Shown here piece by piece: positions 32,479 to 50,544 of a stretch of DNA of 64,000 nucleotides. The notes below the pieces were generated by a model that searched no databases, was not told the DNA's origin, and saw nothing but the letters and a program-made list of their open reading frames with translations. Source of the DNA: an uncultured bacterium (lineage in GTDB: Bacteria > Omnitrophota > Omnitrophia > Omnitrophales > Abzuiibacteriaceae); the NCBI GenBank assembly GCA_964387845.1, contig CAYLXA010000002.1, positions 211,584-275,583 on the forward strand, written 5' to 3'. The position numbers and the translations under genes were made by a program. The first letter of the stretch is position 1; each line of letters opens with the position of its first letter.

Positions 32479-33879
32479 TTACCTGGCCAAGGGTACTGTT
32501 TCTTGATCCAGAGCAACTTTTGCTTGCCAACCGAATCGGTTCTTAATTTCAGAGGCAAGATGTTCTGCGCCAAGCGGTTCTCCGTGGACAATATAAACGG
32601 AACCAGGCGGTTTTTTAAATCCTGAAAGCCATTTCAAGATTTCCTCTTTGTCCGCATGAGCAGAGATACCTTGGAGAATCTCGACTTTCGCACAAACCTG
32701 AACCTCCGCGCCATGAATCCGAATTCTTTTGGCGCCTTCTTGCAACGACCTACCGCGAGTTCCGGCTGCCTGGAAGCCAGCCAAAAGAACCGTAGTCTTT
32801 GGGTCAGGAAGTCTTAATTTTAAATGATGAAGAATACGGCCGCCGGTTGCCATGCCGCTTGCGGAAATAATGATCATGGGGCCTGAAAGATCATTAAGCT
32901 TCCTTGATTCCTGAGGCGTGCGTACGAGATGGTATTGCTTGCAGCACAAAGGACATTTGTGCTCATCCATTAATGTTTTCATGTCCAAATCGTGATCTTC
33001 GGGATGTCTGCAATAAATATCTGAAACGTTAATAGCCATAGGGCTGTCGACATAAACTGGAAGTTCCGGAATTTGTTTTGCTTCTTCAAATTGACGAATC
33101 ATCCAGATCAGTTCCTGCGCTCTTCCCACAGCAAACGCGGGTATGAGAAGAACGCCTCCTTTTTGCGCTGTCTCATTGATCACGCGCACAAATTCATTTT
33201 CTGGATCAGGTGGATGAATCCGGTTGCCGTAAGTGGATTCGACTAACAAAATATCCGCTTCCGGAACAAATTCCGGATCACAAATCATCGGCTGATTCCA
33301 GCGACCCAGATCGCCTGAGAAAACGAGCTTTATAGGGCTCCCTTCTCCGATTTGCAACTCCACAATCGCAGAACCCAGAATGTGACCCGCGCGCCAAAAT
33401 GAGCCCGCGATGCCTTTTGCAATTTGAAATGGTTTGTGGTATTCAACCGACCGAAGATATCCAAGCGCTTTTTCGGCGTCTTCTGTCGTGTAAAGAGGAA
33501 GAGCCGGTTTATGCTTGGAGCAACCGTGGCGATTTGCAAATTCCGCCTCTTCCTCTTGCAAATGAGCCGCGTCAAGAAGCATGACATTAAGAAGATCCTT
33601 TGTGCCCGATGTGCAAAATATCTTTCCACGGAATCCTTCACGTACGAGTAAAGGCAAATAGCCCGAATGATCAATGTGTGCATGACTCAAAGCAATCGCA
33701 TCCAAATCGGAGGGATTAAACGGCGGCTTCGCCCAATTCCGCAAGCGGAGTTGCTTCAAACCTTGAAAGAGGCCCGCATCAAGCAAAATCTGCGAACGAC
33801 CCATCCGGATCAAATATTTGGAACCCGTCACAGTTCCGGCACCCCCAAAAAATGATAAGGTTGGAGAAGATTTATCCAT
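32479..33879 (-). CDS. MBL-fold metallo-hydrolase of the beta-CASP (RNA-metabolising) family
   Basis: HAHIDHSG is the MBL motif 2, and beta-CASP and C-terminal RMMBL-like regions follow. The start was set at the internal Met (MDKSS) to remove a likely artifactual extension. Confidence 0.7.
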   Translation of the reverse strand: MDKSSPTLSFFGGAGTVTGSKYLIRMGRSQILLDAGLFQGLKQLRLRNWAKPPFNPSDLDAIALSHAHIDHSGYLPLLVREGFRGKIFCTSGTKDLLNVMLLDAAHLQEEEAEFANRHGCSKHKPALPLYTTEDAEKALGYLRSVEYHKPFQIAKGIAGSFWRAGHILGSAIVELQIGEGSPIKLVFSGDLGRWNQPMICDPEFVPEADILLVESTYGNRIHPPDPENEFVRVINETAQKGGVLLIPAFAVGRAQELIWMIRQFEEAKQIPELPVYVDSPMAINVSDIYCRHPEDHDLDMKTLMDEHKCPLCCKQYHLVRTPQESRKLNDLSGPMIIISASGMATGGRILHHLKLRLPDPKTTVLLAGFQAAGTRGRSLQEGAKRIRIHGAEVQVCAKVEILQGISAHADKEEILKWLSGFKKPPGSVYIVHGEPLGAEHLASEIKNRFGWQAKVALDQETVPLAR

Positions 33880-34696
33880 GCTTTGTCGCCCTTGAAACAT
33901 AACACGAAGGATCCGCCTCAAACTTTTGCGCACAGCCTTGAGAACAAAAGAAATAGATTTTGTTCTTGTGTATTTTTTTAACAACCGCCGTTTTGAGAAG
34001 AATCCACATCCCACAAACAGGGTCGAGTTTCATGCCAGGTTTCGGATGATGCATCACACCCAAAGCGCTCTTGCCATTAAAATGGGACGGTTTCTTGAAA
34101 TGTTCCTTTTGATAAACGTTGATTAATCGTTTAATCAAATTTCCCGGTTCTTTTGAGTAAACAACACGGGCGCCGGTTTCCTTCTTGCAAGCAGCCAGAA
34201 TATCCCTTGCGATGTTGCTGATTCCGCCCGTTCCAGTGAGCACACCGATTAATTTTCCTTCATCGTAAGCGATCGCAAGCTCACCCAAAGTTCCGCTCCG
34301 GCCGCCAATGATCACGACGATATCCGAGCTGCGGATATTCACAACTTCGCGCCCCATAAGACCGCTTCCGGTATAAATCAGGATGTCGTGAAACTCGGTT
34401 GGGGAATGATACTTATTCACATGCTCGTCAAGACTAAGAGCAGGGGAAATTCCGACAACGATTCCATCTTCTTGCTTTGCCCCGCAAGCTGAAGCAAGTG
34501 GAAGGCCGGGACATGCTCCTGTAATGAGCACGCAGCCATTCTTCGCAATCGCTTCTCCTAAAAGGTGAGCTTTCTCAAGATGGAATTTCTTGATTTTCCC
34601 TGTAGCGCCGCCCATCACACCGATTTTCACTCGCATTCCGGCAATAGAAGGCGCGCTTGTCTTCCTATCGTTATGCATTATCCTTTTAATTCCCAT
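33872..34696 (-). CDS. LOG/TIGR00725-family Rossmann protein fused to a C-terminal YHS metal-binding domain
   Basis: The LOG-like part reads GVMGGATG...IGGRSGTLGEL. The C-terminal part reads DPVCGMWILLKTAVVKKIHKNKIYFFCSQGCAQKF, which fits the YHS pattern. Confidence 0.6.
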   Translation of the reverse strand: MGIKRIMHNDRKTSAPSIAGMRVKIGVMGGATGKIKKFHLEKAHLLGEAIAKNGCVLITGACPGLPLASACGAKQEDGIVVGISPALSLDEHVNKYHSPTEFHDILIYTGSGLMGREVVNIRSSDIVVIIGGRSGTLGELAIAYDEGKLIGVLTGTGGISNIARDILAACKKETGARVVYSKEPGNLIKRLINVYQKEHFKKPSHFNGKSALGVMHHPKPGMKLDPVCGMWILLKTAVVKKIHKNKIYFFCSQGCAQKFEADPSCYVSRATKHG

Positions 34697-34992
34697 TAAC
34701 TCTTCACTTTTTTCTCTAGCTCAGGTTCACGTTTTAACATTTTGTCAATGTATCGCTCCGTGTTTTTTTTCATAGCTTCCTTACACCTCTCAACGAGCGG
34801 GCAACAAACGCCATAGCGCTTCCCGTCAACAACGACAAAATCTTTCCCGTTCACGGGGTTGCCGCTCACAGGACAGTATTTGTTCCCAACCTCAACAACT
34901 TGAGTTGGTGTAGCCGGAGTTGCAGGGTCCGCATACAGATAAACGTTTCCAAACAGTATCGCAACCAACATCAAAAAAATTATTATTTTCAT
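34696..34992 (-). CDS. secreted YHS-like Cys-rich protein
   Basis: A signal peptide is followed by NKYCPVSGNPVNGKDFVVVDGKRYGVCCPLVERC. It resembles 48521-48949. Confidence 0.45.
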   Translation of the reverse strand: MKIIIFLMLVAILFGNVYLYADPATPATPTQVVEVGNKYCPVSGNPVNGKDFVVVDGKRYGVCCPLVERCKEAMKKNTERYIDKMLKREPELEKKVKS

Positions 34993-35005
34993 GACGGCGC
35001 CTCCT

Positions 35006-35206
35006 TTATTTTTTTAATTCGAGATAATTTTTGCCGTTTTCTTGCTTCATCACCACATGACCTTCACGACAGAGCCAGCCTACTGCCATCAAACCTACTT
35101 CTTTTCCTATTGAAACTTTTTGAAGAACATGTTCAAGCTCCAAAGCACCGTGTTCATCGAGCATTTTCCAAATTTCACCGGCTGTGATTCCGATTTCTGT
35201 GATCAT
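35006..35206 (-). CDS. small winged-helix-like protein, paralog family B
   Basis: The 66-aa sequence is MITEIGITAGEIWKMLDEHGALE...LMAVGWLCREGHVV. It belongs to the same family as 44026-44343 and 56918-57139. Confidence 0.55.
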   Translation of the reverse strand: MITEIGITAGEIWKMLDEHGALELEHVLQKVSIGKEVGLMAVGWLCREGHVVMKQENGKNYLELKK

Positions 35207-35214
35207 GTTCTCAC

Positions 35215-35601
35215 TTAACCACCTTCACAATACTTCCTGTGATCGTCCTTTCTCAAAAGCCGCTCATCCCAAAGCCAAATGAGCGCCAGAAAACCAAGCG
35301 ACCAACCGCCGATTTGAGATGGCACTTGATGAAAAATGGCGGCAACTACGAAACTGCTTACCAAAAGAATAAGTAAAGTCGGCAAGAGATTTCGATGGCA
35401 CAAAAACGACATGAAGCTTCTCAAGAGAAAAACGGATAGAGAAACCAGCATCACGATTCGCAATATCTTTTCGCTTGCCATCCAACCGAGTCCAATTGCG
35501 CTAAGCGAAGCGACTAAAAAAGGCAGCGCAAAGAAGCACAACCCGGCGCACATCAGACTCAAGGGACTTGCAAAGTTACATTTTTTCATCGATGCGCTCA
35601 A
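35215..35601 (-). CDS. small Cys-containing membrane protein (MerT-like, tentative)
   Basis: It has three or four TM helices, an MCAGLC motif in TM1 and a C-terminal KYCEGG. Confidence 0.35.
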   Translation of the reverse strand: MSASMKKCNFASPLSLMCAGLCFFALPFLVASLSAIGLGWMASEKILRIVMLVSLSVFLLRSFMSFLCHRNLLPTLLILLVSSFVVAAIFHQVPSQIGGWSLGFLALIWLWDERLLRKDDHRKYCEGG

Positions 35602-35631
35602 ATGTTATAAATTACCGGGTGCGAGAAATGT

Positions 35632-36615
35632 TTACGTTGCCAAAATCGGTAACAGTTTCAAACGAAATGGGTTTAACAACTTCTTCTCTGTAAACGCTTG
35701 CCGAAAGGGCGTCATCACAAGCTGCCCTTTTATTTTTCCGACAGCAACTTTCGTTTTCCCATGAATCATCTGCTCCGCAGCAAAAGCTCCCAATTCGGTT
35801 GCGAGAATTCTGTCCTGCGCTGTCGGTGATCCGCCCCGCTGCAGATGCCCCAAAACAACAACCCGATACTCATTGCCGCTCATTCTCTTAAGTTTTTCAG
35901 CGACTTGAAATGCGCCTCCCTCTTTCTCCCCTTCCGCAATAACAAGGATGCTGCTTGTTTTTCCTTTTTTCCTTGATAAACACAGCCGGCCACACACTTC
36001 CTTCAGCACAGTTTTGATTTCCGGCGTCAACACCTCTTCGGCTCCGCCCGCAATTCCCACATCGAGCGCAATAAACCCTGCTTCTCGGCCCATGACCTCA
36101 ACGAGAAAAAAACGTTCGTGTGACTCTGCCGTGTCACGAATCTTATCAATCGCATCCAAAGCAGTGTTGACTGCTGTGTCGTAGCCAATTGTCGAATCTG
36201 TTCCATACAAATCGTTATCGATGGTCCCCGGAATTCCAATGATTTTGCCTTTCCATATTTTAGAAAGATCAAGTGCTCCGCGATACGTTCCATTTCCACC
36301 AATCACAAGCAGACCGTCAATTTCCCTTTGCTCTAAATTAAATTTTGCTTGTTTTAAACCCTTGAGTGTTTCAAACTCTTTGCAACGCGAAGTTTTGATA
36401 ATTGTTCCACCTCTTTGAATAATATTAGAAACCGAACGAGAGCCAAGTTCGATAAACTCATTCTTAATTAACCCCTGATAACCTCTTAAAACACCGCAGA
36501 CGTTAAGACCTGAGTGGGTTGCAATACGTACGACAGCCCGTATGGCTGCGTTCATTCCGGGCGCGTCTCCGCCGCTTGTGAGCACTGCTATTCTTTTAAG
36601 CTTTTCTTTTGGCAT
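35632..36615 (-). CDS. 6-phosphofructokinase (second copy)
   Basis: IAVLTSGGDAPGMNAAIRAV is a PFK signature, over 327 aa. Confidence 0.8.
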   Translation of the reverse strand: MPKEKLKRIAVLTSGGDAPGMNAAIRAVVRIATHSGLNVCGVLRGYQGLIKNEFIELGSRSVSNIIQRGGTIIKTSRCKEFETLKGLKQAKFNLEQREIDGLLVIGGNGTYRGALDLSKIWKGKIIGIPGTIDNDLYGTDSTIGYDTAVNTALDAIDKIRDTAESHERFFLVEVMGREAGFIALDVGIAGGAEEVLTPEIKTVLKEVCGRLCLSRKKGKTSSILVIAEGEKEGGAFQVAEKLKRMSGNEYRVVVLGHLQRGGSPTAQDRILATELGAFAAEQMIHGKTKVAVGKIKGQLVMTPFRQAFTEKKLLNPFRLKLLPILAT

Positions 36616-36641
36616 AATCTGACGCTCTCAATCAATCGAAT

Positions 36642-36863
36642 TCACCGAAGCATTGGGCACATGCTCTTCCAGTGCAGTAACGGGCAACCATAAAACAGAA
36701 AAAACAAAGCGACGCCTAGAAGCAAAACGACCGTCCAAAGCAGAACATGCTTGTTTCGTCTTTGAATGTTGCCCACAACACTTCGGAAAAGTGATTGCAG
36801 TGCGAGCCGAAGTTCTAGGTTTGCCTCCTCTATGCTCTCACCCAAATTTCTCTGATTCTCCAT
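36642..36863 (-). CDS. small membrane protein, hypothetical
   Basis: The 73-aa ORF has one TM helix and is tightly packed within an operon. Confidence 0.25.
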   Translation of the reverse strand: MENQRNLGESIEEANLELRLALQSLFRSVVGNIQRRNKHVLLWTVVLLLGVALFFLFYGCPLLHWKSMCPMLR

Positions 36864-36888
36864 GACGCACCTCCCATTTTAACTTATC

Positions 36889-37248
36889 TCACTTGCTTTG
36901 AAGCTTAGTAGCCTGTATGCGATGCCATTTAACAAACTCCGAATAAGACCTCTTCAACTTTTCAGCGGCTTTGATCACCGCATCACAATGTTTTTCCATT
37001 TCTTCAATACGGCCAGTCCAATGAATTTTTTCATTCGTTCCATAGGTAAAGCGATACTCTTTTTTCATTTTGAGGTGGCTCGCGATTTCAATATCCAGCT
37101 GGGCAATCTTCTCCTCATAAGAAATCGCCTGTTCAAGGTGATCTGCTACTAAGCGACCTTGCTCTGCTTCTGCCTGCAAAGGGTAAACCCACAGCAAATT
37201 TAGAATAATAAAAACATTTATTGTTTTTGTAAGATTTTTTCTTTGCAT
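36889..37248 (-). CDS. periplasmic protein, paralog family C
   Basis: It has a signal peptide and the motifs AISYEEKIAQLD...MKKEY...EKHCDAVIKAAEKL...WHRIQATKL. It is a paralog of 47639-48049. Confidence 0.45.
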   Translation of the reverse strand: MQRKNLTKTINVFIILNLLWVYPLQAEAEQGRLVADHLEQAISYEEKIAQLDIEIASHLKMKKEYRFTYGTNEKIHWTGRIEEMEKHCDAVIKAAEKLKRSYSEFVKWHRIQATKLQSK

Positions 37249-37312
37249 CTTTGCCTCCAGCCGTTCAGACCAATTTATATTTCTGCTCCGATACATTATA
37301 AATTTACAACAT

Positions 37313-37651
37313 TCATACATGATGACATGAGCATTCCTTGCCATTGCATTTGCAGGGTTTTGGTGCGTGTTCGATAAGACTTGACTTCAAATTCTCTGCA
37401 ACGGTTTCGGTGCCCTTTAAAGATTCTGCGAGCACGGAAAGGCTTGTCGCTTGAGTCCCAAGTTTTCTGCCCGTATTTTGGATGTGTTCAAGTAATGCAA
37501 GCTTCGCGCACTCATCGCACGTTGGAAGCTGTCCCAAAGCTTCTTCAAAGCGTTGGGCTGCTTTGACTATATTCTCAAGCGCGGAGCGCAATTCATGCAA
37601 ACCTATCCGCTTCCAAATTTGTTCTGACGATGAGAAAAGATCTTCTGACAT
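37313..37651 (-). CDS. cytoplasmic protein with a C-terminal Cys/His cluster
   Basis: The 112-aa protein ends in PKPCKCNGKECSCHHV. Confidence 0.4.
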   Translation of the reverse strand: MSEDLFSSSEQIWKRIGLHELRSALENIVKAAQRFEEALGQLPTCDECAKLALLEHIQNTGRKLGTQATSLSVLAESLKGTETVAENLKSSLIEHAPKPCKCNGKECSCHHV

Positions 37652-37948
37652 TTAAAACACCTCCATCACACAATTGACTGTCCCAAAAGGATTTGGAACG
37701 CATTCCTCCGGAAGTTGATCGCTCTGCCAGACTCCGTCCGCAAGAAACCGGTATTCATACCGGCCGGGAGTGAGCTCAATGGTTACTTTCCATGTCCCAT
37801 CTTCTTCTTTTTTGAGCGGATTTTTTGTCAGATCCCAATTGTTGAATGTGCCCGCAATTTGAACTTGTTTTGCTTCAGGGGCGTAGAATTCAAATGATGT
37901 TTTTCTCTTCCGAGCTTTTCTTTCTTTGCTTACGTTTTTTGTTTCCAT
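37652..37948 (-). CDS. stand-alone CBM48 / AMPK-beta glycogen-binding-like domain protein
   Basis: FEFYAPEAKQVQIAGTFNNWD...GTWKVTIELTPGRYEYRFLADGVW matches the E-set/CBM48 pattern. Confidence 0.5.
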   Translation of the reverse strand: METKNVSKERKARKRKTSFEFYAPEAKQVQIAGTFNNWDLTKNPLKKEEDGTWKVTIELTPGRYEYRFLADGVWQSDQLPEECVPNPFGTVNCVMEVF

Positions 37949-37974
37949 TTTCGACCTCCTCGTTTTGTGAAATC

Positions 37975-40900
37975 TTAACTTACAATCCAAGCTGCTTTTC
38001 CTTCCTTCATTTCAAATTTCCATTTCCAAATAGCATAGACCACGGGATAAACCAAGAGTTCCAAGATGAACGACGTGAAAAGTCCTCCGATCATGGGAGT
38101 TGCGATCCGCTTCATCACGTCAGAACCTGCGCCGCTCGCCCACATGATGGGAATGAGGCCCATAAAAGCAGCCATCACTGTCATCATTTTTGGCCGGACA
38201 CGTTTTACAGCGCCATGAATAATTGCTTCTTCCAAATCTTCCTCTGTTTTCATTTTTCCTTTTTCAATGGCATCATGATAAGAAAGATCTAGAAAGAGAA
38301 GCATGAAGACACCCGTCTCCGCGTCCAGACCCATTAAAGCAATCATGCCGACCCAAACGGCGATTGAAACATTGTAGCCCAAAATCCAAAGCAGCCACAC
38401 GGCGCCAATTAAAGAAAATGGAACCGCGAGAAGCACAATGCCTGTTTTGACCGCGGATCGCGTATTCATATAAAGAAGAATACAAATCAAGAAGAGGGTG
38501 AGCGGAAGCACGACTTTTAAGCGCTCTTTCACACGGATCATATTTTCATATTGACCGCTCCAGAGAAGCGCATAACCTGGCTGAAGTTTAAGCTCCTTGG
38601 CCACAATCTTTTTTGCTTCTTCAACGTAAGTTCCAATGTCCCGTCCGGCCATATCCACATAAACATAACCAGCCAGAAGGCCGTTTTCATTTCGGATCAT
38701 CGCAGGACCTGTCACCATGCGAATATCTGCAAGCTGCGTGATGGGAATGTGCTGACCTGCCATCGTTGGAACAAGCACGCGTTTTAATTTCTCAATGTCG
38801 TCTCTCAGTTCTCGGGGATAACGAACATTCACAGGATAACGTTCTCTGCCTTCAATGGTCGTCGTAATGTTTTCACCACCAATGGCGGACATAATCACCA
38901 TCTGAACGTCAGCGATTGAAAGACCATAGCGGGCAATCTCATCACGTTTTATATCGAAATCAATAAAATAACCACCTGCCACACGTTCAGCGTAAATACT
39001 TCGAGTGCCCGGAACATCTTTTAAAATCATCTCAAGATGAGTCCCTATTTTTTCAATTTCATTAATGTCTGATCCTAAGACTTTAATTCCGATCGGCGTC
39101 CTGACACCTGTTGTCAACATATCAATCCTGTTTTTAATGGGCATTGTCCACGCGTTCGTAGTTCCGGGAAGCTTAAGCGCTTGATCCATTTCATTAATGA
39201 GATCTTCATGGGAAATCCGTTCCGGCCAAATATATTCAAATGGCCATTTGAACCATTCGGGCATCCATTTGGAATACCAACGGGTCTTCTTTCGCCATTC
39301 ACCGTGTGGTTTCAGCGTCACCACCGTTTCCCCCATGGAAAATGGAGCTGGATCTGTCGAACTCTCGATACGGCCAGATTTTCCGAAAACGCGCTCAACT
39401 TCTGGGAACGATTTTAGAATCTGATCTTGTTTCTTAAGAAGCTTCTGCGCGCTTGCCACAGAAATGCCAGGCAATGTCGTCGGCATATAAAGAAGAGAGC
39501 CTTCCCATAAAGGCGGCATGAATTCAGATCCTAAACGCAAATAGATTGGAATCGTCGTCAACACAAGGAAAAGTGCTGTCACAATCGTCGTCTTGCGATG
39601 TTTTAGAACGAAACGACAAACGGGTTCATAGATCCTGAAAAGAACTTTGCTGACGGGATGTTTTTCTTCCGGATAATAAGTCCCGACCGCAACCGTCGTG
39701 GCAATTTTGGAAGCCCATTTTGATTTAAATTTAAAAGGTTCCATTCTGGTAAAAAGCATTCGCAGAGCTGGATCTAACGTAATGGCCAAGATAGCGGCAA
39801 CCGCCATCGCCAAATTCTTTGCCCAAGCAAGCGGTTTAAAAAGACGGCCTTCTTGATCAACCAAGGTGAAAATGGGCATGAAAGAAACGGCTATTACAAG
39901 AAGCGAGAAAAAAACAGCAGGGCCAACTTCTTTTAAAGCTTGAAGCCGGATCGCATGATAATCGCCTTTTCGCCCACCCTCGATCCATTGTTCCAGTCGC
40001 TTGTACGCATTTTCGACTTCCACAATAGCACCGTCTACCAAGACGCCGATGGAAATCGCTATTCCTGAAAGTGACATAATGTTCGAGGTTAAATTCATCC
40101 GGTGAAGAAAAATAAAAGAAAGCAAAACTGAAATTGGAATGGTGACAATTGGAATAACCGCGGATGGGAAATGCCAGAGAAATATCAGAATGACGATGCT
40201 GACAATGATCATTTCCTCAAACAGTTGGTGTTTTAAAGTATCGATGGCATGTTCGATTAATTCAGAGCGGTCATAGGTCACGACCAGTTCAACGCCGACA
40301 GGAAGAGAAGGCCCCAAATCTTTGATCTTTGCTTTGACACGGTTAATCACGTTGAGCGCATTTTCTCCAGAGCGCATGATAACGGTGCCTGTGACCGTAT
40401 CGCCTTGGCCATCAAGATCAGCGAGACCGCGCCGGATTTCAGGCCCAAGCGAAACCGTCCCGATGTGCTTCACTAAGACGGGCGTTCCTTTGGAATCCAC
40501 CGCGACCACAATTTGTTCAAAATCCTCAACTGATTTTCCGTAACCGCGCCCTCTCACCATATATTCCGCGCCCGAAAATTCAATTAATCGCCCGCCCACT
40601 TCTTGATTTCCGCTGCGAATGGCTTCCACCACTTTCGTCAGCGGAATGTTATAGGCGAGGAGTTTGTTGGGATCTACGGTTATTTGATATTGCTTGACGA
40701 AACCGCCGAGTGTTGCGACTTCCGCTACACCGGAAACACTTTGAAGGTGGTAACGAAGATACCAATCTTGAAAGGATCTTAATTCTTGTAGATTGTGCTT
40801 GCCGGTTTTATCAACCAATGCGTATTGAAAAACCCACCCGACACCAGTCGCGTCAGGGCCAAGTTCAGTTTGGACGCCTTGCGGAAGGCGCGGGATGATT

Positions 40901-41295: not shown

Positions 41296-42562
41296 GTTGA
41301 TGCCCTCCGCCTCCGCCCATTCCCTGAAGCGCCGCTTTTAAACGGCTTTCCGAGTCAATCAGAAAATTGCCGCTTGTCACAACGATCTCACCTTCCTCAA
41401 GCCCGCTTTTGACTTGATAACCATTTTCCGTTTTGACTCCCAAGCTTACTTCGCGGGGCTCAAAGACACCTCCTTCTTTCATCACGAAAACAACGTTTTT
41501 CTCGCCCGTTGAAAATACCGCTTCCGTGGGAACCGTCACGCTTTCTCCCAAATTAATTTTGAGCATCGCGTTCGCGTACATTTCCGGTTTGAGCAAACCT
41601 TCCGGATTCTCAAGAATCGCCCGAACGCGCACAGACCGCGTCATGGGATCGAGAACAGAATCAATCGAACGGATAACTCCTTGAACCTTTTTATCCGGAA
41701 CAGACGGAATTTCAATTTCAAGCGTATCGCCAACTTTCACAAGGGGGATTTCATATTCATAAATCGGCGCATAAAGCCACACGCGGCCCCCCACATCGGA
41801 ATAAAGAAGAGAGCGATCCGGTTTTCCCAAAGTTTCTATTTCGCCGACAAGATCGCTGCTTAATCCGAGAAGTCGCAGCTTAATTTTGGCGGAATCGACA
41901 AGCTTCGCGGCTTGTTCTTTAATTTCCGGAACTGCGTTTTCGGCTTTTTTGAGAGCGCTAATCGCTTGTAAATACTCTTCTTGTGCTTGATAAAGCTCAG
42001 GGTCATAAGCAATGCGGCCTACGGTGCGTATCGTTTTTTCAATAACCATTTTTTTCACCGGCGCCGTCTCAATTCCGATTGCCTGTTGTTTGTCATGCGA
42101 TACAGTCACTTTGGCGTAGCCCTCGGGCGCCATTTGTTTAATCAGGATTCCTAAATCTTCACCGCAGTGAGGGCATTTGCCCGTTTTCGCAATTTCTTCC
42201 GTTATGGCAAACATGCACTTGCCCATTTTGCATTTATGAAGAAGGCAAATCTCTCCGGGTTTCATATTCATTAACTCTTTTATGGTTAATTCTTTAACAG
42301 CATCTGCGCCAGTGGGCGTAGCTTGTTGATGAGCTTCGTGAGAAGATTGTTCGCTGGTCTCTTCTTTTTTCACGAGCGACATATTGCAGATTGGGCAGCT
42401 GCCCGGGCGGTCGGACGTGTAAGTCGGATGCATGGGACAGTAATAAAGAGCCTTTTTTGATGATACTTTTTGACCCGCACCTTGGATAATTCCAGATTGG
42501 TAAGCCCAAATTCCTCCAAAGACGACAATAAAGATTAAAGCAATTGGAATAATTCTTTTCAT
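41285..42562 (-). CDS. RND efflux periplasmic adaptor (CusB-like) with N-terminal CPMHP-type metal-binding module
   Basis: The N-terminus reads YYCPMHPTYTSDRPGSCPICNMSL, with a second KCPHCGEDL motif, ahead of the HlyD-like barrel and lipoyl regions. Confidence 0.8.
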   Translation of the reverse strand: MKRIIPIALIFIVVFGGIWAYQSGIIQGAGQKVSSKKALYYCPMHPTYTSDRPGSCPICNMSLVKKEETSEQSSHEAHQQATPTGADAVKELTIKELMNMKPGEICLLHKCKMGKCMFAITEEIAKTGKCPHCGEDLGILIKQMAPEGYAKVTVSHDKQQAIGIETAPVKKMVIEKTIRTVGRIAYDPELYQAQEEYLQAISALKKAENAVPEIKEQAAKLVDSAKIKLRLLGLSSDLVGEIETLGKPDRSLLYSDVGGRVWLYAPIYEYEIPLVKVGDTLEIEIPSVPDKKVQGVIRSIDSVLDPMTRSVRVRAILENPEGLLKPEMYANAMLKINLGESVTVPTEAVFSTGEKNVVFVMKEGGVFEPREVSLGVKTENGYQVKSGLEEGEIVVTSGNFLIDSESRLKAALQGMGGGGGHQHGG

Positions 42563-43935
42563 TTTTTCTCCTCGCTCTGAATTAAATCAATACCCGTAGC
42601 GCGTACTAAATCCGCAAAACTACTGACTGCTTCCGTATAAAAACGAATCTGCGTGAGTTTTGCGTTCAAATAAACGCGCTCACTGTCTAATAGATTCAAA
42701 AAATCCATTTTGCCAGCCTCATATCCTGCTTGATCGGCAGAGAGAGCAAGCTTGGCTTGAGGGATGACAGCGGTTTCATAAAGGTCTGAAATGTCGCTTG
42801 CTGCTTTGTATCTGTGATAAGCGTCTTTGACTTCATAAAAGGTTGTGTTCTTAGCTTCCAGGAGTTTCGCTTGACTTGCTTCAAACATCTTTTGTGCTTC
42901 CTGAATTTCAGGAATAATCCGGTTCTGCCAAATAGGAAGGTTAAACCGTATGGGAAACATCCAGCTATCCTTGCCGTCGTCAGGATCCTCGGTCATTCCG
43001 GAACCGACCTGCGTGTATTCAAATCCGATATTGATATCCGGAATATTGGCAAGCTTGGCAAGCGTCTTCGCCTGTCCGCTTCGCGCCACCATGGCTTCCA
43101 TTTCTTTGATTTCTTGGCGATTTCGAACCGCCAAATTTACAAGCTCTACCAAAGATTGTTTTAAAACCGGCTTTTCGGGAGTGTTCGGAGAACCTAACGA
43201 AAGCATCGGATCACGGTCTAAAAGAGCATTGATCATTGCAGTGGTCGTTTCCCGTTCCCGTTTGAGCATAAATAATTTCTCCAATGTCATTGAGACTTCG
43301 GCTTGAGCTTTCGCCACATCGCGCTGAGCGCCTGACAGATTGGAATAGCGCGCCTCGGCCACGCTTTCAAATTTCTTGAGAAGCTCCTTGACCTCCTCAA
43401 TGGTTTGAAGCGATTGATCGACATAATAAAGTTCGCTGTAAAGCTTAGTGAGTTGATTGATCACATCGCGCTGCACGGCAAGATACTTTTGATATTTTGC
43501 ACGTGCCTCTTCATTTGCCATTTTTCCTTTCTTAACCAGCTTCAAGGGAAAGGGCATCTCCTGCGAAACCATAACCCTGTTTTCTTGAGGCCCGACTCGC
43601 GTCTCGACCATTTCCCCCATCAGGTCAAAACCTGCCATCGGATCCGGAAGCGCAGAATCGATCCAAATTCTTTTTTTGGCGGCAAGCCATTCGGCATGAG
43701 CGGCCACAATTCCGGGATTTTTTTCTCTGGCCATTTTGATCAAATCAGGCAGAAGTAAAACCAATTCCGCCGGTGCTTTTTCTGTCGGAGGAATCTCTGG
43801 CGCTTGAGTTTCTTGGGCATGGGTGGCTGCGGCGAAGTTCATCGCTAAGATGAAGAACAGAAAGTATTTAAAAAAAATCCGCCTCGATCTTTTCTCACAA
43901 CCCGCTTTTTTTAGATTAACCATAAATGATTCCAC
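42559..43935 (-). CDS. TolC-family outer-membrane efflux protein
   Basis: It has a signal peptide and two OEP repeats, and it overlaps the adaptor start. Confidence 0.8.
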   Translation of the reverse strand: MESFMVNLKKAGCEKRSRRIFFKYFLFFILAMNFAAATHAQETQAPEIPPTEKAPAELVLLLPDLIKMAREKNPGIVAAHAEWLAAKKRIWIDSALPDPMAGFDLMGEMVETRVGPQENRVMVSQEMPFPLKLVKKGKMANEEARAKYQKYLAVQRDVINQLTKLYSELYYVDQSLQTIEEVKELLKKFESVAEARYSNLSGAQRDVAKAQAEVSMTLEKLFMLKRERETTTAMINALLDRDPMLSLGSPNTPEKPVLKQSLVELVNLAVRNRQEIKEMEAMVARSGQAKTLAKLANIPDINIGFEYTQVGSGMTEDPDDGKDSWMFPIRFNLPIWQNRIIPEIQEAQKMFEASQAKLLEAKNTTFYEVKDAYHRYKAASDISDLYETAVIPQAKLALSADQAGYEAGKMDFLNLLDSERVYLNAKLTQIRFYTEAVSSFADLVRATGIDLIQSEEKK

Positions 43936-44025: not shown

Positions 44026-44343
44026 TCACTCTTTGCTCCTCTCACTGAGCATGACAAACAATTTCCCATTCGTCCTTAGCATCAGCACATGTCCTTCCCG
44101 GCAGAGCCATCCCAAAGCCATAAGAGTAATTACCCGATTCTGTGACAGGCGGCTTGTCAGCAATGAAAACTCAAGCGGGTCTTCCTCATCCAGGACAGTC
44201 CAGATTTCACCGGCAGCAATACCGATCTTTGTAATTGTGGAAGTATCTGAAAAAATCCTTACGTTCATTTCTTGAAGAACGCTTGACAATTCTGATTTTG
44301 TGGCAACAAAAGTTTCCGTTATCATATTCGCCTCCTGAAGCAA
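44026..44343 (-). CDS. small winged-helix-like protein, paralog family B (start uncertain)
   Basis: ITKIGIAAGEIWTVLDEEDPLEF...LMALGWLCREGHVL places it in family B. It has a longer N-terminus, and the start could be M7 or M26. Confidence 0.5.
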   Translation of the reverse strand: MLQEANMITETFVATKSELSSVLQEMNVRIFSDTSTITKIGIAAGEIWTVLDEEDPLEFSLLTSRLSQNRVITLMALGWLCREGHVLMLRTNGKLFVMLSERSKE

Positions 44344-44805
44344 TTACGCTTCCATGCCGGCCATGTTCATTTGTTTCATCGATTCCTGAAGTTTGGCGTG
44401 CAGCTGTGCTAAGTATTTCTCGGTTTGTTCGGACGTCAGTTCTTTTCTCACTTCGAGAATGTGTGCGGCGACTCCTTTTTCCAAGGAAATCTGTAGCGCG
44501 CCAATTTCCTCAACCTTTTGATCAATCGTCTTCGCATTCGCTTTTGGGTCCCCCAACATTCGCAGTAGTTCAAAACGCCCTTGGCATACTTTCATGCAAA
44601 TTTGATCCGCCGATTTCTGGAAGGTGGAATCCAATTTCTTCAAAGTTTCCGTCTGCTTCGCACTCAGTCCCAAGTTGGAATACCCTTCCCCTTGAGAGCG
44701 ATAACCCATCGGGCACATGGTCATGTTGCACATTTTTTGACTTGCCCAAAATCCAAAAAGCGTCACCATGGCAATCAACACTGCAAAGAAAAGCAGTCTC
44801 CTCAT
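44344..44805 (-). CDS. periplasmic LTXXQ-motif (CpxP/Spy/ZraP-like) heavy-metal sensor/chaperone
   Basis: A signal peptide is followed by a Met/Cys cluster (CNMTMCPMGY) and two LTxxQ-type motifs (LSAKQTETL, LTSEQTEKY). An ATGA overlap links it to the anti-sigma gene. Confidence 0.6.
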   Translation of the reverse strand: MRRLLFFAVLIAMVTLFGFWASQKMCNMTMCPMGYRSQGEGYSNLGLSAKQTETLKKLDSTFQKSADQICMKVCQGRFELLRMLGDPKANAKTIDQKVEEIGALQISLEKGVAAHILEVRKELTSEQTEKYLAQLHAKLQESMKQMNMAGMEA

Positions 44806-45299
44806 GACAAATTCCTTTCTTCGATCATAGTTAAATACGTTCCAGCGATCGAAGGAGATGGAATTCCTTTGTATTCTTGAAATCCGGAAAGGGTCTGAAT
44901 GGCTGAAGCAGGCCTTTGATTGAGACTCCAAATTTGGCCGCCGGAAGCCGAAAACCATCCGCCTGCGCTTCCAATAAGAAAAGCGATTGAAAGCACGGCA
45001 AACGCTTGAGATAAATTTGGAATTGGAATCGTCCATTCAAGATTCTTGAGGAGCTTTGAAAACCATGGCTCCTTGGAACGCGCGTAAACCTTACGCCAGA
45101 AAGCAGCATCAAAATCAGGGGAAGGCTCAATTGTTGCAATTGAAGTCCGGAGAACGTTCTGAAGCGTTTTTGCGACTTCAAATTCCTTTTGACAGGAAAA
45201 ACAAGCCTTTACATGCAATTCAAAGTCCCTTCCAACGGACTCTCGCAAGTTTCCATCCAGCCACCGTTCCATATTTTCTTGAATCAATTGACATTTCAT
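44802..45299 (-). CDS. zf-HC2 anti-sigma factor (membrane-spanning)
   Basis: The N-terminal zinc-finger motif reads HVKACFSCQKEF, with a single TM helix and a periplasmic tail. It lies immediately downstream of the ECF sigma region. Confidence 0.6.
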   Translation of the reverse strand: MKCQLIQENMERWLDGNLRESVGRDFELHVKACFSCQKEFEVAKTLQNVLRTSIATIEPSPDFDAAFWRKVYARSKEPWFSKLLKNLEWTIPIPNLSQAFAVLSIAFLIGSAGGWFSASGGQIWSLNQRPASAIQTLSGFQEYKGIPSPSIAGTYLTMIEERNLS

Positions 45300-45443
45300 T
45301 TTTTTATTCCTCTTATCAGTTCAACGCATGAAAGAACTGTCTCCCCCAAACTTTTTTCAAAAAATTCACGGTTGACCTTCCAAAAACAAAGACCCTGAAT
45401 CATTTCGTCAACCAATTCAAGGCCTTTTCCTTTTTGATTTCAA

Positions 45444-45851
45444 TTACCGCCTCGGCCTTGTGAAAGCAACGACTGCTTTCGTGCCGGGCGCCGGATTGGG
45501 ATTCAAAAAGGGGCGGCTTTTATCCACGTATTTTTCAAGTCCCTCGCTATTCCAGTTGCGGGATCTGGTAAATTTAACAATATCCTTGGTACCGCTAATC
45601 CCCTCAAACGGCGGTGCGGGTTCTATTCGCATGCGGGACGGCTCCAAGGTGGGCTTTGGCATTTTTTGAAGTGCGAGGTAATCATGATACTTCATCCATG
45701 CCACAACGGGTTTTGTCCCGTAGTATTCTTTCTGAAAATCTGCGAACGTCTTTGTGGGGGTTTGCTCGACTGCTGAATCAAGTGCGTAAGCGGATACAGC
45801 CAATATCCCCAAACTGATTAAAAAGCTTGAGTATTTTATAAGGTGTTTCAT
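45444..45851 (-). CDS. secreted protein, paralog family A (GTKD[IV]VAF repeats)
   Basis: The block FADFQKEYYGTKPVVAWMKYHDYLALQKMPKPTLEPSRMR is followed by GTKDIVKFTR and GTKAVVAFTR repeats. Confidence 0.5.
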   Translation of the reverse strand: MKHLIKYSSFLISLGILAVSAYALDSAVEQTPTKTFADFQKEYYGTKPVVAWMKYHDYLALQKMPKPTLEPSRMRIEPAPPFEGISGTKDIVKFTRSRNWNSEGLEKYVDKSRPFLNPNPAPGTKAVVAFTRPRR

Positions 45852-45930
45852 CTTCCCCTCCTCCTCGTTTTATGTTCCTACTTAGTAAACGCTTGAGGAG
45901 AGAAAAACCCCCTTACTTTTTTAGGATTAA

Positions 45931-46551
45931 TCAGGATAGGTATTTTGCCAGTCTTTTCCTTAACTCGCCCTTAGCGTGGTAAATCCGTCTTTCAACTGCT
46001 TTTGTGGTGATCCCCAAAATTTGAGCAATTTCTCCATAAGGTAGTTCTTCAAACTGATAAAGGAGGAGCGGCGATCTTATATGCTCTGGCAATTGATAAA
46101 TTTCATTTTGAAGGAGCGCTTTAAGCTCATCGCGATCAAGAGCTTCTTTCGGAGAAGGCGATCTTAAGTTGGGCAAGTTCTCAAGAAAAGTTTGCTCATC
46201 ACCGCTTTCCTTCTGGATTTTCTGATCCAGCGAGATCGGAAAGAATTTCCTTCTGCGAATTAAATCGAGCGACGCGTTGACCGTGATGCGATAAAGAAGG
46301 GTGTAGAACTTGGCGCGCGGATCGTAACGGATTTTCTTCTCGTAGATCCGAATAAAAACTTCCTGAGCGATATCTTCGGCGCTTTGTGCTTCTTTCAAAA
46401 ACCGGAAAGCCAGGTTAATTACTTTCTTTTTATATTTTTCAAAAATACTCTCAAACGCAGACTCTTTTCCTTGAAGAAAGTCATTGATGAGAAGCCAGTC
46501 TTCATCAGCATGTTGAGTGGGCAGCGCATTCTGTATCGGTGTCTGCATCAT
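45931..46551 (-). CDS. ECF-subfamily RNA polymerase sigma-70 factor
   Basis: It has region 2 (DIAQEVFIRIYEK) and the region 4 HTH (LPYGEIAQILGITTKAVERRIYHAKGELRK). Confidence 0.85.
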   Translation of the reverse strand: MMQTPIQNALPTQHADEDWLLINDFLQGKESAFESIFEKYKKKVINLAFRFLKEAQSAEDIAQEVFIRIYEKKIRYDPRAKFYTLLYRITVNASLDLIRRRKFFPISLDQKIQKESGDEQTFLENLPNLRSPSPKEALDRDELKALLQNEIYQLPEHIRSPLLLYQFEELPYGEIAQILGITTKAVERRIYHAKGELRKRLAKYLS

Positions 46552-46557
46552 ATCTCA

Positions 46558-46956
46558 TTATAATTTGTTACTAATCTCACAATCAAATGGCGATTTATCA
46601 GAGCGCCAGACCGCAATCATCAGTTCTTTTGTTGATCCAATAAAACCGCCATACTTTTGATTATACAAATCTATGATTTCACCCTCCCGGTGCCCTTGCT
46701 TAAAGAGCGAAATTAGATACGCTTTTCTTTCCAAAGCGCCTCCGGGTTCATGACACGGACATTCGGCAACCGTGAGAGAACAGTTCATTGGGCAAATGCA
46801 GCGAAACTTCTTCCCGATTTTTTCAACCAGCATGTTTTCATCGTGTTTTTTACCTTCATAAACCGCAAATGAAATCATCATAATAAGCGTTCCCACCCCG
46901 ACGCCGATGCCAAGTGCATTTCTTAGATGATCAAATTTCTTCGCTTTTTTATTCAA
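46558..46956 (-). CDS. CcmH/NrfF-like membrane-anchored Cys-motif protein
   Basis: A TM anchor is followed by FRCICPMNCSLTVAECPCH and a ...RYG..-like tail (YNQKYGGFI) that resembles the CcmH fold pattern. Confidence 0.4.
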   Translation of the reverse strand: MNKKAKKFDHLRNALGIGVGVGTLIMMISFAVYEGKKHDENMLVEKIGKKFRCICPMNCSLTVAECPCHEPGGALERKAYLISLFKQGHREGEIIDLYNQKYGGFIGSTKELMIAVWRSDKSPFDCEISNKL

Positions 46957-46989
46957 CCTGATAGCCTTTGGTTTCGTGCACTATTTGCT

Positions 46990-47619
46990 TTATTCATGAC
47001 CGTGATCGTGGGAATGCTCATGAGAAGGTTCGACTGATTCATGCGTCATGCTTTTCAAACCAACACCCACGCCCTTTGAAAAAACCATCCTTCCGCCCAA
47101 ATCGGCTCCTTGAGTTAAAACCAAAGCTAAAAACGCGAGACCTATTAAGAAAAACGTTCTGCCTTTGGATGGAATATTTGCTTTTGAGAAAAAAACCCAT
47201 ATGCAAAGCACAAGGCCTAAAGCCAGCACCGCAAATCCAAAATATTGGTGTGCCATCATCATTTTATGCACCTGTTCGTCATGCTGGACAGTTCCCGCGG
47301 CTTGAAGCCCTGTCCAGACGGCAAGCGCGGCACTTAAAGTTCCGAAATAAAGCTCCCATCTCGCGGCAGCGAAGAGTTCTTCTTTACGAAAGATACTGCC
47401 CAAAAAATAAAAGGCGGTTGACGTTAAAAGAAGAGCGATCGGAAAATGGACAAAAAGCGGGTGGAAATTAATAAGCTCTTGAGCGCCTTTGAGTCCCCAT
47501 TCCACTCCGACTGGAACGTTGGATGCGTGCTCATGACCTTCATGCGCTACCAATATAGGTGGCAAGAAAACCGAGAATAAAACCACAACCAAAATGATTC
47601 CCAACATAAGCTTCTTCAT
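46990..47619 (-). CDS. 4-TM membrane protein with His-rich termini (DUF2231-like, tentative)
   Basis: The N-terminus reads HEGHEHAS, the TM core carries an HPLFVHFPIALL motif, and the C-terminus reads HEHSHDHGHE. Confidence 0.45.
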   Translation of the reverse strand: MKKLMLGIILVVVLFSVFLPPILVAHEGHEHASNVPVGVEWGLKGAQELINFHPLFVHFPIALLLTSTAFYFLGSIFRKEELFAAARWELYFGTLSAALAVWTGLQAAGTVQHDEQVHKMMMAHQYFGFAVLALGLVLCIWVFFSKANIPSKGRTFFLIGLAFLALVLTQGADLGGRMVFSKGVGVGLKSMTHESVEPSHEHSHDHGHE

Positions 47620-47638
47620 ATTTCACCCCTTTTTTTAG

Positions 47639-48049
47639 TCATTCTTGATGTTCCATAGCGCCGGGTTCTTCAAGTTCCGCCGCTCGCATCCGATGCCATT
47701 GGGAAAATGCGAGGAGCCGCTCGCGTAAACCTTGAGCAGCTGCTAAGATGGCATCGCAATGCTCTTCAAACTTCTGAATCTTAATCTCTGAAAACAGCTC
47801 CGGCCGCTGCGGATTCGCTGCGTATTCATTCTGGTAATCTTTTTTCATTTGCTGGTGTTCTGTGATTAATTTGTCTTGCTCGGCAATTTTCTCTTCATAA
47901 TCTTGAGCAAGCTTTGAATGATAGGAAATCGCTTCTGCTATGGCCGATTTTGAATTTTGATCCGAATCACTTTCAGCTGATGCGAAACCAATTACTGCCA
48001 TTCCAAAAAGCATGATTCCAATGAATGATACTTGAAATTTAACGTTCAT
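47639..48049 (-). CDS. periplasmic protein, paralog family C
   Basis: AISYHSKLAQDYEEKIAEQD...MKKDY...EEHCDAILAAAQGL...WHRMRAAEL marks it as a paralog of 36889-37248. Confidence 0.45.
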   Translation of the reverse strand: MNVKFQVSFIGIMLFGMAVIGFASAESDSDQNSKSAIAEAISYHSKLAQDYEEKIAEQDKLITEHQQMKKDYQNEYAANPQRPELFSEIKIQKFEEHCDAILAAAQGLRERLLAFSQWHRMRAAELEEPGAMEHQE

Positions 48050-48137
48050 TTATCATTTCTCCTACTTGATAGGAAAGTAACGCTAGAGGCCGGAGTGGAC
48101 GGTTGATCCACTCCGGCTCTGGCTGTTTTCCGCTCAA

Positions 48138-48494
48138 TTAGTGCTTATGGCCTGACATACCGTGTATGTCGTGACCTGCGCCTTGAGTTTCTTCTTTTAT
48201 TTCCTCTTTTGTTTCTTGAATCACTTCTTCCCTTGCCGCAAACTTTTCGAGATTCATCCCGCATTTCGGGCATTTCCCTGGTTGATCTTGCTTGACCTCG
48301 GGATGCATCGGACAGGTGTAAACCATCTTTTCTCCCATGGTTCCGTCATGTTCGTGTGACTTTTCATCGCCGCTGTGTTGATGCGTGGCTTCCTCTTTTC
48401 CTTGATGCGAATCATGCATCTCATGCTGCGCCCACACGTTACCTCCAAAACCCAAAACAACCGCTAAAAGCAGCATACAAAATCTGATTTTCAT
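48138..48494 (-). CDS. His-rich periplasmic protein with CPMHP-type heavy-metal-binding module
   Basis: A signal peptide is followed by an H/E-rich stretch, then YTCPMHPEVKQDQPGKCPKCGMNL, then a C-terminal GHDIHGMSGHKH. Confidence 0.6.
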   Translation of the reverse strand: MKIRFCMLLLAVVLGFGGNVWAQHEMHDSHQGKEEATHQHSGDEKSHEHDGTMGEKMVYTCPMHPEVKQDQPGKCPKCGMNLEKFAAREEVIQETKEEIKEETQGAGHDIHGMSGHKH

Positions 48495-48520
48495 TTTTTC
48501 TCCTTTTGACGTTGAAATTG

Positions 48521-48949
48521 TTAAACTTTTCGTGTTTTTAAGTAGCGTTTGTAGTTTTCTTTTGATTCAAAATAAAGCACCTCCTGTTTTGCTGAATTTG
48601 GTTTTTTGACAATGAAAGCGCTTGCCTTATCCACTTCAACACCTGAATAAGGATCGCGCGCGTAACGAACTGATCTGTTATTTTGAATAGACCCCACACA
48701 GCCTTGGCAGCAACCATAATAAGTTTTGCCTTCAGCCACGACCGGAATTTGTTCTGTCCCAAAGTATTTGTTATTGACCATGCAAACAAGGTTATTTTTC
48801 AGTTGTGCTTTGCCTACATCCAGCATATTCTGTGATAAAGCTGACCATGCAAAAACGCCAATCCCAGTGATCGTAAGAAAGATGACCGTAAAACCAACTG
48901 GCCTGAAAATCCTTTTTTTAATTGCCCCGAACAGGTCGCGACTTTCCAT
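48521..48949 (-). CDS. membrane-anchored YHS-like Cys-rich protein
   Basis: A TM anchor is followed by LVCMVNNKYFGTEQIPVVAEGKTYYGCCQGC. Confidence 0.45.
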   Translation of the reverse strand: MESRDLFGAIKKRIFRPVGFTVIFLTITGIGVFAWSALSQNMLDVGKAQLKNNLVCMVNNKYFGTEQIPVVAEGKTYYGCCQGCVGSIQNNRSVRYARDPYSGVEVDKASAFIVKKPNSAKQEVLYFESKENYKRYLKTRKV

Positions 48950-50543: not shown

Positions 50544-50544
50544 T

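Follow-up and report, generated by a model that had tools for sequence, protein, structure and literature searches.

A SLOG-YHS fusion protein and its putative RNase partner in a predicted metal-resistance island of an uncultured Omnitrophota bacterium

The window analyzed here is a stretch of 64,000 nucleotides (positions 211,584 to 275,583 of contig CAYLXA010000002.1, assembly GCA_964387845.1) from an uncultured bacterium of the phylum Omnitrophota. It encodes a 274-residue protein in which an N-terminal SLOG/Rossmannoid domain is joined to a C-terminal YHS domain, and the gene of this fusion lies between those of a small secreted protein, p98, and a TTHA0252-like beta-CASP metallo-beta-lactamase RNase. 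The original prediction, made from the letters alone, had listed the fusion together with two further YHS-like open reading frames (ORFs), here called p98 and p142, and all three were located correctly, on the minus strand (Table 1). It was silent on the most informative feature, the apparently translationally coupled RNase gene downstream. The stop codon of p98 and the ATG of the fusion overlap as TAATG, behind a strong AAAGGAGG Shine-Dalgarno sequence, while the RNase gene begins inside the fusion gene: its actual ATG, at position 33879, gives an overlap of 8 nt with the 3' end of the latter (cATGGATAA). From these overlaps, the fusion is predicted to be translationally coupled both to p98 upstream and to the RNase downstream. 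A promoter and terminator scan of the region from 32 to 38.2 kb returned only chance-level signals. We hold the descriptive account of the fusion, that is, its domain identity, motifs, coupling and neighborhoods, with high confidence.

Both halves of the fusion are recognized by Pfam above the respective cut-offs. The N-domain matches PF18306 ('SLOG cluster4') with 150 bits (cut-off 26.3 bits) over profile positions 2-150 of 151, and the C-terminus matches the YHS profile PF04945 with 37.9 bits (cut-off 30.3 bits), with no sign of a mismatch to that profile. The proposed pairing of a LOG-like and a YHS domain is thus upheld, as are the motifs quoted for it: GVMGGATG at residues 26-33, IGGRSGTLGEL at residues 130-140, and DPVCGMW...FFCSQGC, which provides the complete ligand set D225-x2-C228-x22-C251-x3-C255. 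Residue conservation was followed in a 26-sequence alignment, which contains 80 invariant columns, and then in a wider set of family members from 66 species. In the wider set, T59-G60, C62 (64/65), R116-E117, G131-G132, G135-T136, E139, D145-E146, H199 and P203 vary little or not at all, and the YHS ligands are kept in all YHS-bearing members. With R116, T136, E139 and the GGxxGT loop invariant in the 66 members, the LOG-like half shows no degeneration, and judging by its residues neither half of the fusion appears degenerate. C170 is kept in 60 of the 66 and its loss is restricted to YHS-less Nitrospirota members. C71, near-invariant in the 26-sequence alignment but present in only 13/66 of the wider set, is no longer considered a candidate ligand. 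The fusion has no signal peptide and is therefore presumed to be cytoplasmic.

The AlphaFold2 (AF2) model of the fusion has a pLDDT of 83.9, with a disordered linker at residues 204-215. An almost invariant motif, H-F-(R/K)-(R/K)-P-S-x-F, spans residues 199-206, within the sole stretch of the model that has low confidence and looks disordered. H199 and P203 are present in 66/66 members and S204 and F206 in 60/66, and the motif is retained even in YHS-less members. It may serve as a partner-binding motif.

A profile search of the PDB sequences with the N-domain recovered RoMCP (6y01, E 9e-15), CrMCP (2iz5, E 2e-13) and TM1055 (1rcu, E 3e-13); the matches to the molybdenum cofactor (Moco) carrier proteins (MCPs) 2iz5/2iz6 and 6y01 range from E 1e-13 to 9e-15, while true LOG enzymes match more weakly, at E 1e-5 to 3e-3. 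Foldseek searches with the AF2 model agree, giving a TMt of 0.85-0.90 for 1rcu (TM1055) and the Moco carriers 2iz5/6y01, the carriers at 26-30% identity, as against 0.70-0.76 for LOG enzymes. Among NCBIfam models, TIGR00725 scores 78.7 bits, under its cut-off of 106.9, and those of true LOG enzymes reach only 25.0 bits (TIGR00730, cut-off 96.35) and 24.3 bits (NF058542, cut-off 300). The proposed 'LOG/TIGR00725-type' label thus calls for refinement, and for 'LOG-family' one should read a divergent subfamily that is SLOG cluster 4/TIGR00725-like. Sequence and model together indicate that the N-domain is not LOG proper but a distinct subfamily of SLOG cluster 4/TIGR00725, nearest to TM1055 and the Moco carrier proteins.

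TM1055 (1rcu), CrMCP (2iz5/6/7) and RoMCP (6y01) share with the fusion the fold, PF18306, 25-30% identity, the GGxxGTxxE loop and the R/T phosphate-binding residues. The fusion differs from them by a 7-residue insertion (LSLDEH...), an extra C-terminal helix, the linker and the YHS domain. When the proposed Moco contacts of RoMCP (PMC7470044) are mapped onto the fusion via an HMMER alignment, only two of the eight are kept (R89 as R116 and T109 as T136), both being generic phosphate-binding residues. The other six are replaced (R42 by C62, S67 by A86, N72 by P99, N87 by L113, K118 by D145 and N119 by E146), and of the replacing residues C62, D145 and E146 are invariant in the family (C62 in 64/65). 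The fusion is therefore MCP-like in its fold, not in its binding site. With the LOG and PpnN-type nucleosidases (PF03641, TIGR00730), it has in common the SLOG Rossmannoid fold, equivalents of the catalytic Glu and of its partner Arg from the RK motif, and a GT-containing phosphate loop, but the PGGxGTxxE of LOG becomes IGGRSGTLGE, one residue longer and without Pro, and the GGGxxGxMG loop becomes TGACPGLP.

Homologues of the fusion number 5,975 proteins at E <= 1e-3, which the databases label merely as 'YHS domain-containing protein' or 'TIGR00725 family', and both Pfam domains are present in 117 of the 120 best homologue clusters (60-91% identity). In a scan of GTDB with one genome per GTDB species, 277 species genomes encode a relative, mostly labeled Planctomycetota (Gemmataceae, Pirellulaceae, Planctomycetaceae), with others from Omnitrophota, Binatia, Sumerlaeota, Nitrospirota and single further groups. 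The pairing had been called uncommon, a view that the shared architecture of the top clusters and the 277 species contradict: the fusion is taxonomically concentrated, not rare, and the window copy is a typical member of a catalogued, uncharacterized family. L-numbers below designate individual loci, and locus counts refer to the best 80 GTDB loci of the 277 stretches encoding a fusion relative. The YHS domain is retained in 69 of these 80 loci, the YHS-less ones coming mostly from Nitrospirota, Thermodesulfovibrionales or Binatia. In the plasmid collection, TIGR00725 and YHS genes occur only separately, and the fusion itself is absent. A search for literature on the SLOG-YHS family, whose reach did not extend to the SLOG-defining survey (Burroughs 2015), found none.

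The partner RNase, of 466 residues, has Thermus thermophilus TTHA0252 (2dkf) as its best PDB match, with E 8e-82, and the same beta-CASP metallo-beta-lactamase architecture. Its catalytic motifs SHAHIDH, ESTYG, GGRILHHL and SAHAD are all present by inspection and alignment, with HxHxDH and motifs A-C intact. Two features set it apart from TTHA0252: the N-P-F-R-P of the latter is changed to C-P-L-C-C, and there is a conserved, clade-specific insertion of ~14 residues (EEEAxFANRxGxSKHxPAxPL). The C-P-L-C-C sequence occurs in 17 of the 20 SLOG-linked beta-CASPs, the exceptions being L024, L072 (whose SLOG partner lacks the YHS domain) and the frameshifted L010. Together with the YHS cysteines of the fusion, clade-specific cysteine clusters are thus found on both partners. 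Among NCBIfam models, the RNase scores best against that of the Cas14 beta-CASP, with 383 bits, below the 800-bit cut-off. An RNase gene lies immediately 3' of the fusion gene on the same strand in 23 of the 72 loci (out of 80) with enough downstream sequence, counting L024 and L043, in which the genes overlap by 4 nt. These 23 loci take in all the closest relatives, and their records, labeled Omnitrophota, Gemmataceae, Pirellulaceae, Binatia, Sumerlaeota, Bacteroidales and a proteobacterium, represent at least six phylum-level labels. The YHS-less members L072 and L073 are also paired with a beta-CASP gene. In four loci (L010, L015, L017, L021), a small DUF2934 ORF of 76-98 residues separates the SLOG-YHS and beta-CASP genes.

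Neighbors were counted from tblastn, hidden Markov model (HMM) and motif-based scans. Single-linkage ORF clusters were discarded, as they lumped ATPase subunits together with the SLOG proteins and contained antisense ORF clusters in high-GC loci. Within a radius of 8 kb, genes for CusA, CusB, a multicopper oxidase (MCO) or an HMBD protein are found at 40 of the 69 YHS-bearing loci (58%) and at 3 of the 11 YHS-less ones, the latter being a small sample. At least 12 other loci encode a secreted p98-family protein no more than 3 kb away from the fusion, and about 11 planctomycete loci a second YHS protein directly upstream of the fusion gene. This second protein has 221-280 residues, with an unannotated N-domain and a C-terminal PF04945 domain (E 3e-10; L013, L015, L017, L018, L021, L034, L038, L057, L063), and a CPVSG-type secreted YHS protein is often encoded one gene further upstream. 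Pairs of an extracytoplasmic function (ECF) sigma factor and a zf-HC2 anti-sigma factor also recur. In L084, a relative with 91% identity, a single strand carries, in order, genes for the ECF sigma factor, anti-sigma factor, Metal_resist protein, OEP, CusB, CusA, CBM48, p112, MerC-like protein, DsbA, p98, SLOG-YHS and beta-CASP. There, the cusCBA operon runs directly into the cassette, which forms its tail downstream of the ECF sigma gene.

Other recurring neighborhoods can be described by lineage. In Pirellulaceae and relatives, either a V-type ATPase operon directly follows SLOG-YHS (L030, L049, L052, L059, L061, L062, L068) or an F/N-type ATPase operon lies near it (L008, L031, L044, L056); a type II P-type cation ATPase adjoins it in other loci. 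Glycogen phosphorylase and GlgX flank SLOG-YHS in several Planctomycetaceae loci (L020, L022, L027, L032, L040).

The two small YHS-like proteins of the window are more divergent than the fusion. The N-terminus of p98 resembles a signal peptide by inspection, and the protein has no Pfam match even at E 10. A word-indexed search returned only three close relatives, and a HMMER profile search of 1.8 billion representatives returned 454 at E <= 1e-3, many of which carry the module two to six times. Pfam YHS recognizes 47 of 50 relatives (best E 3.4e-28), and a TRASH model recognizes 37 of them. The consensus of the family reads GNKxCPVSG...GKRYGLCCPxCxxxFxKDPEKY; in the copy of the window, three residues are inserted into the CCPxC motif (CCPLVERC) and the F...DPxKY tail is lost, which explains why it has no Pfam match of its own. 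For p142, encoded just downstream of the multicopper oxidase gene and showing a hydrophobic N-terminal anchor by inspection, Pfam gives nothing significant, the YHS match being at E 0.1 over 13 residues. It has 381 homologues, several of them labeled 'YHS domain-containing protein' by JGI, and among its aligned homologues 16 of 26 match Arc_trans_TRASH and 4 of 26 match YHS. The hhalign probability is weak (35%), and the AF2 model is confident over residues 50-140.

The p98-family HMM, searched against about 1,100 ORFs, cross-matches the window fusion (E 5.6e-6) and p142 (E 3.1e-4), which places the three proteins of the window in a single YHS/TRASH superfamily. In direct profile-profile comparison, the p98 and p142 profiles give only weak local matches to the YHS part of the fusion, with probabilities of 5-36%. 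The claim of two further YHS-like proteins accordingly holds at the level of relatives and of the family HMM; neither p98 nor p142 has a significant Pfam match of its own. The TRASH/YHS modules of Cu-ATPases, archaeal CopT-type regulators and L24e, the structurally characterized TRASH prototype (PMC4626032), belong to the same superfamily as these two small proteins and the fusion's C-terminus. Unlike these modules, p98 and p142 are stand-alone, secreted or anchored proteins with a CC-x2-C second half-motif, in which the first Asp/Cys ligand is missing: an Asn takes its place in p98, and the position varies among relatives of p142.

The surroundings of the cassette are rich in genes of metal handling (Table 1). 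Besides the tabulated genes, the region from 30 to 64 kb carries those of a P-type ATPase, of a second RND system and of two DsbA-like proteins; it ends in the phage-type integrase, and by its gene content it is taken to be a metal-resistance island. The ECF sigma factor and the genes next to it form a candidate regulator set, in which the putative anti-sigma factor has no Pfam match of its own and is placed by gene order. The window CusA and MCO are 78% and 86% identical, respectively, to proteins of loci with different phylum labels. At about 28 kb, two copies of a 47-nt direct repeat lie 183 bp apart and hold the 3' 19 nt of a tRNA-Val gene. The tRNA-Val repeat, the integrase that closes the window and the dense metal-resistance genes at ~30-63 kb suggest an integrated genomic island.

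Table 1. Features of the window, with positions counted from its first nucleotide
Feature	Position	Strand	Basis or remark
47-nt direct repeat, first copy	28234-28280		
47-nt direct repeat, second copy	28417-28463		
tRNA-Val	28445-28520	-	3' 19 nt within the repeat
p149	31494-31943	-	paralogue of p135; no Pfam match
127-aa secreted protein	31963-32346	-	no Pfam match
TTHA0252-like beta-CASP metallo-beta-lactamase RNase, 466 aa	32479-33879	-	Beta-Casp, RMMBL and Lactamase_B domains
C-P-L-C-C triad, RNase residues 309-313	32941-32955	-	alignment to TTHA0252 (N-P-F-R-P there)
SLOG cluster 4-YHS fusion, 274 aa	33872-34696	-	PF18306 E 5e-44; PF04945 E 1.8e-9
C-terminal YHS domain, fusion residues 225-269	33890-34024	-	PF04945; ligands D225, C228, C251, C255
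Linker motif, fusion residues 199-206	34079-34102	-	almost invariant
SLOG/Rossmannoid domain, fusion residues 23-187	34136-34630	-	Pfam, conservation, structural matches
p98, small secreted divergent YHS-family protein	34696-34992	-	C40...C63-C64-x5-C70; family profile search
DUF2582 winged-helix protein and MerC-like membrane protein	35006-35601	-	Pfam; directly upstream of p98
DUF2582 winged-helix protein, first paralogue	35006-35206	-	
Phosphofructokinase	35632-36615	-	
p151	36889-37344	-	paralogue of p136; no Pfam match
Stand-alone CBM48/AMPK-beta-like glycogen-binding protein	37652-37990	-	
cusCBA-type RND efflux operon: outer-membrane factor, membrane-fusion protein with N-terminal HMBD, RND pump	37975-43935	-	domain matches
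DUF2582 winged-helix protein, second paralogue	44026-44343	-	
ECF sigma factor, putative anti-sigma factor, p135, Metal_resist (PF13801) periplasmic protein	44344-46551	-	candidate regulator set of the island
p135	45444-45851	-	paralogue of p149; no Pfam match
CcmH/NrfF-like CxxC protein	46558-46956	-	weak, E 6e-4
DUF2231 membrane protein	46990-47619	-	His-rich termini
p136	47639-48049	-	paralogue of p151; no Pfam match
Small secreted HMBD-domain protein	48138-48494	-	PF19335 E 3.8e-14
p142, membrane-anchored YHS/TRASH-like protein	48521-48949	-	C56...C80-C81-x2-C84, then Cys-less second half
Multicopper oxidase with C-terminal HMBD	49104-50561	-	Cu-oxidase_3, Cu-oxidase_2, HMBD
Phage-type integrase	63189-63920	-	closes the window

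The best functional analogy to the fusion is the class IIIc adenylyl cyclase of Mycobacterium phlei, which carries a C-terminal YHS domain and is activated by 1-10 µM Cu2+ (PMC4626032). Both proteins have the YHS domain C-terminal to a nucleotide-processing domain, and the YHS ligands of the cyclase (D178, C181, C204 and C208) have a spacing identical to that of the fusion (PMC4626032). However, the output of the cyclase is a cyclase homology domain rather than SLOG, there is neither an RNase partner nor a copper-island context, and its linker has 8-11 residues compared to ~35 in the fusion, where HFxxPSxF is conserved. By extension from this system, a rise in cytoplasmic copper would place Cu on the YHS site formed by D225, C228, C251 and C255, and binding would switch the SLOG domain through the conserved linker (H199...P203-S204-x-F206). 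The switched domain would then bind a 5'-phosphorylated nucleotide or cleave its N-glycosidic bond, and the partner RNase, with its own Cys triad, would deliver 5'-nucleoside monophosphates (5'-NMPs) from RNA or answer the same signal. Within this scheme, copper binding is predicted from the complete YHS ligand set and a 5'-phosphorylated nucleotide is the candidate ligand from the retained R/T/GT loop, allosteric gating of SLOG by copper is suggested by the cyclase, and the 5'-NMP products of the RNase may be linked to the SLOG domain. A coupling of copper status to a nucleotide-related activity, along the lines of the original prediction, would fit both the conserved copper-resistance context and the cyclase precedent (PMC4626032).

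The reading that we prefer, as plausible even if short of an even chance, is that the fusion is a cytoplasmic copper-responsive nucleotide-binding or -hydrolyzing protein which, with the RNase, forms an accessory arm of the envelope copper-efflux regulon. More tentatively, and with some doubt on our part, SLOG-YHS and the CPLCC beta-CASP could constitute an undescribed copper-gated module of RNA and nucleotide turnover, in which Cys sites on both proteins read cytoplasmic copper. Several points weigh against the preferred reading. YHS/TRASH domains are able to bind metals other than copper, and the copper-gene count of 40/69 stands without a background rate around random genes in these genomes. 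Type II P-type ATPases, V-/F-type ATPase operons, glycogen phosphorylase/GlgX and glutamate dehydrogenase are recurrent neighbors as well, and the family is therefore not tied exclusively to copper; two thirds of the loci lack an adjacent beta-CASP gene. With respect to the nucleotide chemistry, the canonical GGGxxGxMG loop is replaced, an invariant Cys stands where the MCPs and TM1055 carry Arg, and the literature search gave no biochemistry for any family member. The non-catalytic Moco carriers, which are the nearest characterized homologues, also keep the R and E residues, so that the conservation of this pair is no proof of catalysis, which cannot be inferred either way.

Part of this evidence could also be accommodated by a housekeeping pair for nucleotide and RNA turnover, with the YHS domain as a structural Zn/Cys ribbon and the proximity to copper genes due to hitch-hiking on mobile islands. 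Such a pair would be at home in the heterogeneous neighborhoods with ATPase operons, glycogen enzymes and glutamate dehydrogenase, it would account for the beta-CASP genes beside the YHS-less members L072 and L073, and the window island does end in an integrase and has highly mobile parts, as seen from the identities of CusA and MCO across phylum labels. We nevertheless consider it unlikely, given the Cus/MCO/HMBD genes at 58% of the YHS-bearing loci from many lineages, the extra YHS proteins clustered beside the gene, the Cys triad gained by the RNase partner, and a ligand set equal to that of a YHS domain with a demonstrated response to Cu. If, instead, the YHS cysteines together with C62 and C170 sequestered or passed on Cu(I), the fusion would be a cytoplasmic copper buffer or metallochaperone with no nucleotide chemistry. 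The copper-island context agrees with this, as do the invariance of C62 at the position of the phosphate-binding Arg of MCP/TM1055 and the presence of C170 in all but the YHS-less Nitrospirota members. Yet the nucleotide-phosphate residues and the Rossmannoid core are kept at 60-70% identity across phyla, beyond what a simple Cys chaperone would need, and the conserved RNase partner is left unexplained, which makes such a buffer quite unlikely.

Copper can occupy the dithiolene of molybdopterin. The fusion might thus be a variant of the Moco/molybdopterin carriers that stores the dithiolene cofactor or shields it from copper, the YHS domain capturing Cu; its best matches of known function, in sequence and structure alike, are indeed 2iz5/2iz6 and 6y01 (TMt 0.85-0.90; PMC7470044). 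This appears improbable to us, since only two of the eight RoMCP contacts are kept and the basic crevice has turned acidic, no Moco-biosynthesis genes recur in the neighborhoods, and the RNase partner again finds no explanation. PMC6459960, which summarizes Burroughs 2015, describes SLOG domains as sensors or processors in conflict systems, and in view of the Cas14 beta-CASP model as the top NCBIfam match of the RNase, the two proteins could be the SLOG sensor and nuclease effector of a nucleotide-centered conflict (anti-phage) system. Here the Cas14 score is far under its cut-off, the neighbors are metal, ion and energy genes, not defense genes, and the conservation is very high, unlike that of fast-evolving defense genes. 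At E <= 0.01, PADLOC models matched none of the three cassette proteins (fusion, RNase and p98) and neither of the two encoded upstream of p98 (the DUF2582 winged-helix and MerC-like proteins), and the defense reading was rejected as extremely unlikely.

Bacterial copper homeostasis is seen chiefly as efflux, oxidation and chaperoning, and the standard picture has no nucleotide-binding or RNA-degrading component. With its 60-70% identity across phyla, RNase coupling and repeated occurrence in cus/multicopper-oxidase islands, the cassette is a well-defined candidate for a cytoplasmic branch of the copper response that would act on RNA or nucleotides. Should the copper-gated turnover module be real, copper would switch on the degradation of RNA to 5'-NMPs and the cleavage of their N-glycosidic bonds, or would destroy or make a nucleotide-derived signal, and Planctomycetota, Omnitrophota, Binatia and their relatives would have a direct tie between metal stress and the pools of RNA and nucleotides; the sole biochemical precedent found for a YHS-regulated enzyme is one adenylyl cyclase. 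Should one of the rival explanations hold, the fusion would be an ordinary member of an uncharacterized family riding a metal-resistance island. What is new here is the partnership with the RNase, the CPLCC triad of the latter and the position of the cassette in copper islands; the domain architecture itself is already catalogued under generic names.

Several smaller observations concern the other genes of the window. Three pairs of paralogues are present: p149/p135, with 55% identity and a repeated GTKD(I/V)VxF motif, p151/p136, with 38% identity and likewise found twice in L001, and the two DUF2582 winged-helix proteins, with 51% identity. The stand-alone glycogen-binding protein and a phosphofructokinase are encoded within the copper island, and together with the Planctomycetaceae loci they make a recurring connection to glycogen and energy metabolism. 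The 127-residue secreted protein encoded just downstream of the RNase gene is rich in Cys, His and Met over one segment, HLCPCAAAQMGDHLRFSKSHDCCDRMPNCPMGKC, and may likewise bind metal. The genes of the CcmH/NrfF-like CxxC protein and of the DUF2231 membrane protein fall between that of the ECF sigma factor and the oxidase cluster; DUF2231 recurs near SLOG-YHS in L003, L007 and L033.

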